Shown here: piece by piece, positions 4,222-20,361 of the stretch | How the letters are laid out: each line of letters begins with the position of its first letter | How positions within the stretch are numbered: the first letter of the stretch is position 1 | DNA from: a virus | Lineage: Duplodnaviria > Caudoviricetes | Virus record (IMG/VR): IMGVR_UViG_3300049722_000006 | Location: 1 to 29,509 of that record | Length of the DNA stretch: 29,509 nucleotides | Direction: 5' to 3' (one strand) | Program-made: the position numbers and the translations under genes | The notes under the pieces: generated by a model | What the model saw: the letters and a program-made list of their open reading frames with translations, nothing else | The model's database searches: none | What the model was told of the DNA's origin: nothing

Positions 4222-4929
4222 TCATTTGGAATTGAAAGAACGGATTTCGGAGTCCTGATTAATCCCCATGCATCGCGACTGCACCCGGTAGAAATAGTGC
4301 GTTCGCGGCGCCAACCCGGAGATACTGACGAGGTGATCCGTCGTGGAAAGATTATTGGCAACTACTGATTTTCCCAAGGCGGCCGTAAGACCATAAAACA
4401 CGACCCCGCTGCATTCCTCAGAGGTCGTCCAGGCAATGGTGGCGCTGTAGCTTTGGATGTCAGTTGTCATGATGACAGGAAATACAGGCAATGGCGCAGC
4501 CTCCCCGGGATCGCCCTTGTCGCCCTTCGGTCCAGCGACACCCTGTATTCCTTGCGGCCCAGCAGGTCCAGGCGGTCCAGGAGGACCAGGAGGACCTGGA
4601 GGACCTGGTTGGCCCAGAGATATTGGAGGCTGTACGGGATCGGCGCCGATTGTCGTGGAAACCTCGTTGGAGTATCCGCTCTCTTCGCCAGCAGCGTTGC
4701 TCGCTGTCACCGCAAAATAATACACCCCTGGCGTCAGACCTGTGACCATGTACGTGAGCACGTTCCCGATATTGATCGGCGCTGAATATGTGCGGGAAGC
4801 CTGGCCAACATAGACGCTGTAGCCGGTCACGTTGGACGATGGGCTCGCATCCCAAGCAAGGCCCACATCGGCAGCGATGGCAGGTAAAGCGAGCAGCAGC
4901 AATACGAAGGCGAAGAGCAATCGTTTCAT
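4222..4929 (-). CDS. Secreted protein: signal peptide, FN3 domain, collagen-like repeat, second FN3-like domain
   Basis: [26 protein letters not shown]...GYSVY...[17 protein letters not shown]...ESGYSNEVS; 13 Gly-X-Y triplets; ATIAWTT...[20 protein letters not shown]. Confidence 0.9.
4498..4614 (-). repeat. Collagen-like (Gly-X-Y)13 coding repeat
   Basis: [39 protein letters not shown]; 9-nt imperfect tandem repeat. Confidence 0.95.
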
Positions 4930-4960
4930 AGTATCTGCTTCACAATGATTTGTGCTGTTT

Positions 4961-5239
4961 TCATGGTTTCCTCTCAGGAACCTTAATTGTTATGGTTGCG
5001 GTAATTCCATTCACGCGATCCAGGATCCCATGCAGATCTTCCACGATTGTCAGAGCCAGGCCGTTCAGGCTGCTCACGATCTGCACTAGGTCTTCGTCGA
5101 TGTGCTCATCTGCGGAGTCCACGACGCGGTTAATAGCGCTAACCAGCTTGGGGATAGTCTGATCAATCACGCCGGTGAGCTTTGGCAGGGTTTCGTCATT
5201 GATTTTGTCGATTGATTTTTGGATGCCAATGAGGTCCAT
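4961..5239 (-). CDS. Hypothetical helical protein (92 aa)
   Basis: ORF in the co-directional gene run; internal repeat DETLPKL/DQTIPKL. Confidence 0.7.
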   Translation of the reverse strand: MDLIGIQKSIDKINDETLPKLTGVIDQTIPKLVSAINRVVDSADEHIDEDLVQIVSSLNGLALTIVEDLHGILDRVNGITATITIKVPERKP

Positions 5240-5244
5240 TTATT

Positions 5245-5469
5245 TCACTCCACGGGCGTAATATCGAAATAATAGGATTTGCCTATAACCAGTTGTTCGG
5301 CGGCCTTTGGATTGTCGATCTGGAATTCAGCCATCCCGCTTGGGGTGGCCTTCTGGAATGACACATCCTCCGCAACCTTCTGATCGTAGCAGCATCGGAA
5401 TATTGCCTTTGCTCCGCCCCATGATTGGGCAAACACGCCTTCCAAAGTCATTTTTGCTCTGATTGCCAT
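5245..5469 (-). CDS. Conserved small phage protein (74 aa)
   Basis: MAIRAKM...FQKATPSG...IDNP...GKSYYFDITP pattern; SD AGGAG. Confidence 0.8.
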   Translation of the reverse strand: MAIRAKMTLEGVFAQSWGGAKAIFRCCYDQKVAEDVSFQKATPSGMAEFQIDNPKAAEQLVIGKSYYFDITPVE

Positions 5470-5594
5470 CTTCTTTCTCCTGTCAAAAATATTAGTTAGT
5501 TCACCGATAAACTTTTTCTGATGCCTTTCCCACTCTCCGGGCGGGTTACAACAGGTTCAGTTGGGACCGCCTAAAACAAGTTCTCCAAGTGCCA

Positions 5595-6101
5595 TCATTT
5601 CACCCCGTAGCGAAATCCAAATCGAATCGTTGCATCATTATTACCGATGCTGCTGAAATTCCCCTGCCCGCCAACGATAATCCCCCATCCTTTACCAAGC
5701 GCGAAATGCCCAAAGCCGCCGACACTCCCCTGGACGCCGGTTTCATTGCCGGTCGTGGCGAGCCCGGGAGCCCCGATAACCCAAAGCGTCAGCTTGCCAA
5801 TGGTCGCCGTCTCAAAGGCGAATCCGCTAAAGGCTGTGAATTTAAGTTTGGGTATCACGCTGGCCGGTTGAACGATCGGTGCCACGTCGATGCCTGAATA
5901 CGAAAACAGTTTGCCTTTAAGCTGATGATCGTACGTTCCCCAGCCCATAATCTGCGGGGTTGCGTTTTGCGAAAATGCCATGCCCCCGGTTACTCCTTGC
6001 GTGGTTTCCTGAGCATCGGCCGGCATGCACAAAAATGCGATCATCGTTAAATCAAAGGCGACGAAAAACATAAAACGTATTGCGCGAAATGATTCTTTCA
6101 T
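5595..6101 (-). CDS. Putative outer-membrane beta-barrel-like protein with signal peptide
   Basis: Hydrophobic N-terminus ending ADA|Q; mature part made of alternating Gly/aromatic strands; ends IRFGFRYGVK; ATGA coupling. Confidence 0.6.
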   Translation of the reverse strand: MKESFRAIRFMFFVAFDLTMIAFLCMPADAQETTQGVTGGMAFSQNATPQIMGWGTYDHQLKGKLFSYSGIDVAPIVQPASVIPKLKFTAFSGFAFETATIGKLTLWVIGAPGLATTGNETGVQGSVGGFGHFALGKGWGIIVGGQGNFSSIGNNDATIRFGFRYGVK

Positions 6102-6295
6102 TTGATCCTCCCTATATGGATATTCCCGATCTCCCCGAATCCGCCAAACAGAATGGATATGATCCAGAGAATAACCACGATGACGACGACAATATTTAAA
6201 ATCTGTTTGATTTTCGCATCCATGGGAATCATGTTTACGAGATACAACAGGACTCCAATGATGATCAGGGTTACAACTAAGCCGATGAGAGACAT
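6098..6295 (-). CDS. Small two-helix membrane protein (Thivi_2564-like)
   Basis: LVVTLIIIGVLLYLVNMIPMDAKIKQILNIVVVIVVILWII; SD AAGGAG. Confidence 0.85.
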   Translation of the reverse strand: MSLIGLVVTLIIIGVLLYLVNMIPMDAKIKQILNIVVVIVVILWIISILFGGFGEIGNIHIGRIK

Positions 6296-6305
6296 GGTTT
6301 ACTCC

Positions 6306-18780: not shown

Positions 18781-18787
18781 ATGTCCT

Positions 18788-19123
18788 CTAATTAGGCTTT
18801 TTAGGTTCTTGGCCGTTTGTTTTTTCCTTGTCTTCTTTTTCTTTCAAAGCCTTTGCCCTGTTATCCAGCTCAGAGATAAACCATTCACATTGCTGGATCG
18901 CTCCCCCGATTGCCTGAAGATTGGCTGCCATTTGGGCTTGGGCTGACTTTAATTCTTCTAGCCTCTTTTGAACGTCTACTTTTGTAATTACTAGCGGCTT
19001 TGGATCCGGCGTTTGATCTTCTGCAATGATCGTTCCGGTAGGAAGCTCAAGCGTCTGAGCTGATGCCATAGGAAGAAGGCTTGTTGCTAATGCGATTCCG
19101 ATTACAGCGATAAGATATTTCAT
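18788..19123 (-). CDS. Signal-peptide-bearing coiled-coil protein (111 aa)
   Basis: MKYLIAVIGIALATSLLPMASA|Q followed by QKRLEELKSAQAQMAANLQAIGGAIQQCEW. Confidence 0.75.
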   Translation of the reverse strand: MKYLIAVIGIALATSLLPMASAQTLELPTGTIIAEDQTPDPKPLVITKVDVQKRLEELKSAQAQMAANLQAIGGAIQQCEWFISELDNRAKALKEKEDKEKTNGQEPKKPN

Positions 19124-19126
19124 ATT

Positions 19127-19160
19127 AAAAGGGAAAAGGGGCGGATCCGAAGACCCGCCC
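19127..19160 (-). terminator. Intrinsic terminator after the capsid genes
   Basis: GGGCGGGTC-TTCG-GATCCGCCC followed by CTTTTCCCTTTT; C(UUCG)G loop. Confidence 0.8.
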
Positions 19161-19166
19161 GGTTAG

Positions 19167-19364
19167 TCAGGTTTCGACAATTTCAAGGCGTACGATAACG
19201 GCCCATCTCTTATCTCGCGCCGGGCCCTGATTGAAAATCATCTCTCCGCCGTCTCCGGTGGTTTAAATCTTCAAGTTGGCCGGATGCTCGATATTGAAAG
19301 CTGCGAGCCCGTTTTTATTTACCGACGCTGAAATTGCCAGTTCTAATAGATCAATGGTTGGCAT
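19167..19364 (-). pseudogene. 65-codon ORF interrupted by an in-frame TAA (or two tiny ORFs)
   Basis: SD GGAGG; MPTIDLLELAISASVNKNGLAAFNIEHPANLKI*TTGDGGEMIFNQGPARDKRWAVIVRLEIVET; TAA at 19263-19265; ends just before the terminator. Confidence 0.5.
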
Positions 19365-19389
19365 TGATTTATGCCCTCCATTAAGTTAG

Positions 19390-20361
19390 TTAGCTGCAGG
19401 TCGCAGCAAGCGGTATCCATCTTGCCGTGCCGTCTACTCGAACCTTTATTCCCCCGGTCGTGCCGGTAACAGCACTAGGGGTGCAAGTGGTGTTTGCTTC
19501 CGGAGTGTACGTATTGGTCTCTATGTCGAAAACATAGGTGGCCTTCCCAAACATGCGGACATGCGAACTGATAACTCCGCCTCCGGCCGCTTCAGTGTAA
19601 ATCGCGTTGATGATGGTCGAGGTTCCGGAATTGTAGCCGTAAATGTTGGCCTGAACTGCTCCAACATTGCCAGCCGAAACCGTGCCTCCGGTTACATCCA
19701 ACTGGCCATAAATACCAGCCAAGGAAGTGCCTGAGAAGGTGCCGGTTCCCGTGACCGCCTTTCCCTGAGTGCCGTAAAGATAGGCCCCCGAAATGGTTGA
19801 TCCGGTCGCCATTGTCACGGCCCCGCGCACTCCCACCAGGTTTCCAGAAGTCATAGTGCTGGCAGTTGTAACCTCTCCCATGATCTGGCGATATGTTCCA
19901 GGCGTGGCACTGACGGAAGTGAACAGGCTTGTAAACGGTGTTTCCTGCGTCCACGTGCTCGAAGTACAGTTGATCCTATTCCCCGTCCTAACATTGATTA
20001 TCGGGAGATAGGACCAGCTCGAACTTGAGCATGCCCCAACAGGGTCGAGCGGTTGGCTGATAAACAGCTTAACTGGGCCAACCCAAACCATCGCCCCCGA
20101 AGCATGCAGCCCGGCGGATGTCCCGCTCATGCCTCTTGTGACGCCAATGGATGTGCCGCTTACCGAAGTCACGTTCATCACTTCGGCATCGATGAAGGCC
20201 ATAGTCGAGCCGGCCGTGAAGCCGGTCGCTGATGCAACCCTGATCGTTTGCGCCGAAGTGCTGGACACCGCGGCGGACAAAGTGGTTTGCGTTGTGGTGG
20301 CCGCGACGGCCGGGATACAGAGAGCCAAAAGCAAAGCAATTATTGTAAGTGTTTTTCTCAT
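19390..20361 (-). CDS. Putative capsid decoration/head-fibre protein with signal peptide (323 aa)
   Basis: Immediately after the coat gene, SD GGAGG; MRKTLTIIALLLALCIPAVA|A; TTLSAAV...IDAEVM...VTRG..GT.A..H.SGA domain; Thr/Ser/Gly-rich beta repeats. Confidence 0.75.
   Translation of the reverse strand: MRKTLTIIALLLALCIPAVAATTTQTTLSAAVSSTSAQTIRVASATGFTAGSTMAFIDAEVMNVTSVSGTSIGVTRGMSGTSAGLHASGAMVWVGPVKLFISQPLDPVGACSSSSWSYLPIINVRTGNRINCTSSTWTQETPFTSLFTSVSATPGTYRQIMGEVTTASTMTSGNLVGVRGAVTMATGSTISGAYLYGTQGKAVTGTGTFSGTSLAGIYGQLDVTGGTVSAGNVGAVQANIYGYNSGTSTIINAIYTEAAGGGVISSHVRMFGKATYVFDIETNTYTPEANTTCTPSAVTGTTGGIKVRVDGTARWIPLAATCS

Follow-up and report, generated by a model that had tools for sequence, protein, structure and literature searches.

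By the standard account, a tailed phage completes its assembly inside the cytoplasm, ahead of lysis. The closest described systems to the locus reported here are those of P22 (tailspike gp9), Sf6 (gp14), Pam1 (7EEQ) and Pan3 (9VYG), which have the same head-binding fold, a gp10-like hub and a P22-type coat, portal and small terminase, the spike being added last. Their spikes begin at the head-binding domain, and P22 heads together with purified tailspike yield infectious phage in vitro (10.1101/2021.09.20.461090). We analysed IMG/VR virus record IMGVR_UViG_3300049722_000006 (the window), which is taken whole at 29,509 bases and carries a P22-type late module on the minus strand. Its tailspike (7965-10181) adds a Sec leader and a cysteine pair to the head-binding fold. 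Because this leader is present where the P22/Pam1 type is synthesised in the cytoplasm without a signal peptide, the window spike is a variant of that type and not a plain member. An earlier note on this DNA had proposed that five leader-bearing late proteins fold in the periplasm, possibly with disulfide bonds. This is well supported for the tailspike and the protein encoded behind the coat gene (the post-coat protein, 19390-20361), for which the add-on leader, its tracking of the host group and co-varying Cys pairs make export very likely; it is not supported for all five.

Phage proteins routed through Sec include Lom/Ail-type outer-membrane barrels, signal-bearing endolysins and inovirus coat proteins. 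A 168-aa barrel protein of the window fits the Lom/Ail type, but proteins of these kinds work in the envelope or in lysis, or come from extruded viruses, unlike appendages of a tailed particle built in the cytoplasm. Q-rule genes of unknown function in Porphyromonas phages are read as outer-membrane modifiers in the accessible text of Matrishin 2023 (PMC10367356). Their products resemble those of the window in having host-type Sec leaders that expose Gln, and differ in not being read as virion parts.

Cellulophaga phage phi18:3 (KC821620) comes nearest to direct evidence for leader-bearing proteins on tailed virions, which rests on GenBank notes. According to these notes, twelve structural proteins in the stretch examined were detected by mass spectrometry (MS), and three of them (gp085-087) have classic leaders followed by Gln, as in the window. 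The phage differs in host phylum, its proteins have 0-3 Cys and no significant similarity to window proteins, and its record is silent on leaders. Tunturiibacter phage Tunturi 1 (PP887698) is a cultured Acidobacteriota podophage which, like the window phage, has late-gene leaders. Leaders were found on 5 of its 26 late open reading frames (ORFs) examined (four large and Cys-rich, one annotated tail spike), but no homology to window proteins was detectable. Signal peptides go unmentioned in the accessible text and supplement of the Tunturi paper (PMC11924767). As the earlier note supposed, no literature account of exported tailspikes or of periplasmic maturation of tailed phages was found; prior mention is possible in subscription journals and bioRxiv supplements, which lay outside the search. 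What the window shows is a genuine variant of the P22 system that runs through a whole lineage, and of which no account was found in print.

The tailspike and its added leader

Leaders were scored by a purpose-written, rule-based caller of n-, h- and c-regions, not by SignalP. The rule was later widened to permit Met at −3 because a clear leader in locus L099 had been missed, and counts made after the survey of 31 loci use the wider rule. The five leader-bearing proteins of the earlier note were all found as minus-strand ORFs in their places, and their leaders are real, four being classic and one atypical. Sec leaders of the kind cleaved by type I signal peptidase (SPase I), with small residues at −3 and −1, were called for the ORFs starting at 10181 (spike), 20361 (post-coat protein), 19123 (111 aa) and 4929 (FN3-collagen protein). 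The barrel ORF starting at 6101 was uncalled: its leader of about 30 residues has an Asp in the h-region, yet ends in a small-residue site, and the homologue in L088 was called. Five of the 143 ORFs of at least 60 aa were called, namely the four genes and one spurious antisense frame. The claim of a leaderless core also stood, in that the coat, portal, gp4-like and gp10-like proteins were uncalled, as were the scaffold, terminase, needle-like and ejection proteins. In the genes for the spike and the post-coat protein, the leader ATG comes with a ribosome-binding motif. At their mature N-termini no start codon with such a motif was present, and internal starts as the origin of a leaderless form were unsupported by this check.

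As judged by the leader rule, a PDB search and the predicted structure, the spike (738 aa, 11 Cys) comprises a Sec leader (residues ~1-19), a P22/Pam1-type head-binding domain (~20-125) and a body that is probably a beta-helix. Residues 19-124 match the head-binding domain of the Pam1 tailspike (7EEQ, E 1.6e-5) and Pan3 spikes. The model of the domain (predicted local distance difference test, pLDDT, 87) matches the head-binding folds of Pan3, Pam1, P22 and Sf6. The body alone gave no Pfam match and no PDB sequence match; PF12708 was matched by 6 of 12 aligned spike relatives, and the family profile matches the Sf6 tailspike. The full-length spike had no relative in viral contigs and a single partial match among cultured phages.

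The expected docking site of the spike is the leaderless gp10-like tail hub (16165-17595), which is homologous to the partner of the head-binding domain in Pam1 and Pan3 (phrog_578; 7EEQ needle head, E 1.4e-18; 9VYG, E 3e-19). A complex prediction of the head-binding trimer with this hub scored 0.00 (mark 0.32) and was used neither for nor against docking.

The best 120 of 412 spike homologues were examined, 116 of which cover the head-binding domain. In the alignment the leader is a block of about 18 residues ahead of an unchanged domain, and the mature N-terminus lines up with the first residue of leaderless homologues and of the solved virion spikes. Head-binding domains of leader-bearing spikes have 47-65% best identity to leaderless phage copies. 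The earlier note had held that homologues mostly lacking the extension would speak against its reading. Such a lack was literally found for the spike, since 112 of the 116 start directly at the head-binding domain and 4 have a leader, but the leader follows the host group and its rarity among homologues was therefore read as supporting.

Host group, post-coat protein and cysteine pairs

The closest coat relatives in genome bins have 54-62% identity; three of six are labelled Acidobacteriota, two come from one Pseudomonadota-labelled bin and one is unlabelled. From these labels the phage host is likely an acidobacterium of soil. All 4 Acidobacteriota-labelled loci have the spike leader and none of the 27 others do, though these 31 genome loci are not independent and bin labels may be wrong. 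The 27 leaderless loci include Variovorax, Rhizobium and Pseudoxanthomonas isolates, and the four Acidobacteriota loci include the prophage of a Terriglobus isolate with three consecutive leader-bearing genes downstream of its ejection genes. A second called leader occurred in 13 of 17 loci with a leader-bearing spike versus 7 of 62 with a leaderless one. In G015, G017 and L151, however, the leaders of the spike and the post-coat protein do not go strictly together. Of the coat-related records, 19 include downstream sequence. A head-binding-domain spike is present in 10 of these, always with a leader, and 3 have only other exported proteins; no leaderless spike copy was found in the stretches covered. 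A tree of the head-binding domain, with Cys masked and leaderless rows thinned to 66, required at least 6 leader-label changes versus 21 in shuffles; only 2 are forced by strong branches of this quick, poorly resolved tree, from which the number of leader gains is not inferable.

In L099, an Acidobacteriales chromosome, a lone spike gene (10001-11731) lies between hopanoid-type and tol-pal genes, named by eye, possibly a host capture of a tailspike. In L130 (9477-11667) three tandem head-binding-domain genes have near-identical leaders, two of them being domain-only, through duplication or an assembly artefact.

The post-coat protein (323 aa) has, by predicted structure and position, a Sec leader (1-20), a six-stranded virion-type beta-barrel and a low-confidence, fibre-like C-terminal half. 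Its first 80 mature residues form a confident predicted barrel (matching barrel-type accessory domains of capsids, baseplates and tail tubes at Z 9-11 and the P22 I-domain at Z 6.6), and the remainder was poorly modelled. Its matches in the viral library include many proteins named tail fibre; a separate search gave a tail-sheath stretch as sole match. No known Dec protein was among the listed structural matches of the barrel, the C-terminal half being poorly modelled. The protein is a candidate capsid decoration or head fibre. Of 29 locus hits of its family, with duplicates counted, 27 come immediately after the coat gene, a position kept with or without a leader. Leaderless members in L126 and L151 also sit behind coat genes, and the family therefore exists in both forms. 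Serine plus threonine make up 28% of the window protein, the maximum in the window, so that it might, speculatively, be a target of periplasmic O-glycosylation.

Cysteines of the post-coat family follow the leader. The window protein has conserved Cys111/Cys132; within the stretch tested, 65 of the 69 members with a leader have exactly two Cys, and the 7 truly leaderless members have none. An eighth member scored as leaderless (L007) turned out to have a leader missed by the rule. L007 and L008 (11264-11345) are sister prophages with strongly diverged leaders and near-identical flanks, both leaders being hydrophobic and ending before Gln. A second post-coat family, phrog_673, is mostly leaderless; its L012 member (37% identity) has a leader, which reads as a third add-on, and is Cys-free. 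Because this leader-bearing protein of another family has no Cys, disulfides are, as far as these sequences tell, not the sole reason for leaders.

For the spike, 227 domain sequences were pooled and thinned to 191 at 90% identity. The set excludes six rows without a normal N-terminus, the two tandem L130 copies, duplicates and one truncated ORF; L194 received its leader-bearing label manually, and the start of L111 was reset. Of the 24 leader-bearing spikes, 20 have at least two Cys within their first 105 mature residues, compared with 3 of the 167 leaderless ones. Nine of the 24 have CxxC, ten have a strand Cys plus a Cys in an inserted loop, one has a pair placed otherwise and four have no pair. 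The window pair (Cys43 and Cys105) is of the strand-plus-loop type. Neither CxxC nor the strand-plus-loop pair occurs in any of the 167 leaderless members. The fact that two different Cys pairs arise with the leader argues for an oxidising compartment, and DsbA-like genes were found in 5 of 5 host-group genomes.

In 24 of 24 spikes (loose pattern) and in 63 of 68 post-coat-family proteins, the leader ends in a small residue with Gln next. The same pattern occurs in 34 of 61 called leaders of acidobacterial chromosomal proteins versus 55 of 223 uncalled; phage leaders therefore follow host usage. The chromosomal set (L205-L224, Terriglobus and Acidobacteriales) suggests a Q-rule beyond Bacteroidetes. 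The rule was described for Bacteroidetes, and Acidobacteria are unmentioned in the accessible main text of that paper (PMC5837995).

Other genes of the window

The late module encodes small and large terminase, portal, scaffold, coat, gp4-like adaptor, gp10-like hub, three ejection proteins, spike and lysis cassette, and the features below are on the minus strand unless stated. The leaderless head proteins are the P22-type portal (23068-25203; PF16510, E 6e-103), a scaffold-like protein assigned by position and composition (21621-22718) and the P22-type coat (20374-21618; PF11651, E 2e-21). The gp3-type small terminase matches PF16677 (E 2e-18). The leaderless gp4-like adaptor (17583-18314; phrog_12985; weak match to the Pam1 adaptor, E 0.05) most likely starts at 18314 rather than 18617. 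Behind the hub lies a leaderless protein of 382 aa (15017-16165) without a family match, which its position suggests to be needle- or fibre-like. Three leaderless ejection-type proteins (10339-14216; 245, 527 and 515 aa) were assigned by a match to the gp7-like phrog_598 for the first and by position for the other two. The lysis cassette (6098-7936) has an M15 peptidase endolysin (PF13539) and several small membrane proteins with hydrophobic segments, the holin candidates.

The three other leader-bearing proteins differ in what can be said of them. Three distinct relatives have a leader-bearing copy of the 111-aa coiled-coil protein (18788-19123) behind their exported post-coat gene; the protein had no named match. 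Record G002 has a leader-bearing copy plus a leaderless 49-aa copy behind a leaderless 898-aa fibre gene, and this one genome suggests that the protein is a helper that travels with its client, possibly as fibre partner or chaperone. The 168-aa protein with the atypical leader (5595-6101) gave no direct Pfam match. Its ESM Atlas feature score of 0.97 and the fit of its predicted structure to PF13505-type barrels (TM 0.72-0.82) identify it, as modelled, as an outer-membrane beta-barrel and not a virion appendage, and its leader is therefore ordinary. The FN3-collagen-FN3 protein (4222-4929) is encoded beyond the lysis genes; an SPase I leader was called in 15 of its 20 best homologues, and nothing was found linking it to the virion. 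The proposal that all five proteins are appendages is thus unsupported for the barrel and the FN3-collagen protein.

A terminator-like hairpin (19139-19160) downstream of the coat and post-coat genes is the top-listed of 20 such sites, a total not above shuffled sequence (23.6); promoter and terminator totals in the window are at chance level. A conserved gene of 167-179 aa ahead of the ejection genes (14192-14731) is leaderless and matches PHROGs named short tail fibre or adhesin. ORF 3843-4361 matched a toxin pore domain below the Pfam cut-off and was treated as coiled-coil noise. By eye, the long minus-strand frame running off the left end (~1-1400), with a Walker A-like start and coiled coils, is probably an early-region SMC/RecN-like ATPase. 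At the right end a plus-strand ORF (28847-29509) open at the border, with a zinc ribbon, is presumably an IS1595-family transposase look-alike. This ORF and two small genes are spanned by a 564-aa antisense frame (27788-29482), a probable shadow ORF.

Proposed assembly route and its alternatives

We infer that the spike and post-coat protein join the particle at lysis. The head and tail hub would be built in the cytoplasm from leaderless proteins, and the spike and post-coat fibre would very probably be exported, cleaved and oxidised by host Sec, SPase I and DsbA-like enzymes. Cleavage would often expose Gln, as in host proteins, and Gln might cyclise. Once holins and endolysin open the cell, the spike might dock on the gp10-like hub and the post-coat protein on the capsid, much as purified P22 tailspike completes P22 heads. 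Taken as a whole, this sequence of events, with a leaderless head and hub and exported appendages docking on finished particles, is the reading we favour, with some reserve.

Several observations weigh against it. For the window phage, the evidence base is sequence and structural models. A leader-bearing spike is present in L008, a Pseudomonadota-labelled bin outside the 31-locus set. Cys counts over whole spikes show no significant excess of even numbers (16 of 24, p 0.15), and the window spike has 11; Gln directly follows the caller's top cleavage site in no more than 13 of the 24 spikes; and the glutaminyl cyclase family PF05096 turned up in just two of the five host-group genomes. The leaderless needle-like protein could serve adsorption instead. 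Six of the 19 coat-related records, one labelled Terracidiphilus, have neither spike nor leaders, and none were found among the ORFs examined in the first 50 kb of Tunturi 3 (0/25) or Tunturi 4 (0/20). Phages of Acidobacteria therefore do not require export. Finally, the L099 spike gene with its leader stands alone between host operons in a genome without a detected P22 coat.

The lone L099 gene and the six relatives without spike or leaders would also fit a reading in which the exported proteins never join the particle and act on the envelope or in the lysate, as free depolymerases removing capsule or receptor, as decoys or as agents of superinfection exclusion, the head-binding domain being a relic for trimerisation. 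The window operon does export a true outer-membrane barrel, and the envelope role given to the Porphyromonas genes (PMC10367356, accessible text) points the same way. However, the head-binding domain retains its fold and its identity to leaderless phage copies, no leaderless replacement of the spike was found in 10 of 10 records, the post-coat gene holds its place behind the coat with or without a leader, and the leader-bearing proteins of phi18:3 are annotated as MS-detected in virions. We consider this reading rather unlikely, at roughly one chance in a handful.

P22 heads still produced lysis spots when combined with a P22 tailspike lengthened by 43 aa at its N-terminus (10.1101/2021.09.20.461090), and Sec capacity may saturate late in infection. 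A cytoplasmic pool, escaping late export or retaining its leader, might thus assemble as in P22, the exported part being a side product or serving a second role. Cys pairs that occur only with the leader point instead to an oxidising compartment; the mature N-termini in the window lack a start with a ribosome-binding motif, and a Met near the mature start is present in only 7 of 24 homologues, which leaves this account improbable. Least probable of all is that the leaders are uncleaved anchors or signal-arrest-release segments holding appendages at the inner membrane as the site of tail completion, since in spite of the Pro at the likely −1 of the window spike, unusual for SPase I, the short h-regions, small −1 residues and the Gln that comes next, seen in all 24 spikes, agree with cleaved leaders of the host.

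Assembly with docking at lysis may extend beyond the window. We lean slightly towards the view that one group of tailed phages infecting Acidobacteriota, and independently certain phages of Bacteroidota, divide virion assembly between the two sides of the inner membrane. Their heads and tail hubs would be made in the cytoplasm, and their spikes, fibres, decoration proteins and even helpers would be secreted and then oxidised and N-terminally capped in the periplasm, with lysis as the last assembly step to infectivity. The route is testable now with cultured Tunturi 1, phi18:3 and the prophage of the Terriglobus isolate. If it is true, failed cytoplasmic expression of such spikes would be explained, and filters based on signal peptides would misfile virion genes as host cargo. 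Virions would obtain disulfides made by the host, and Sec and Dsb would become host factors for infectivity. An exported receptor-binding protein would then turn the opening of the membrane into a maturation step.

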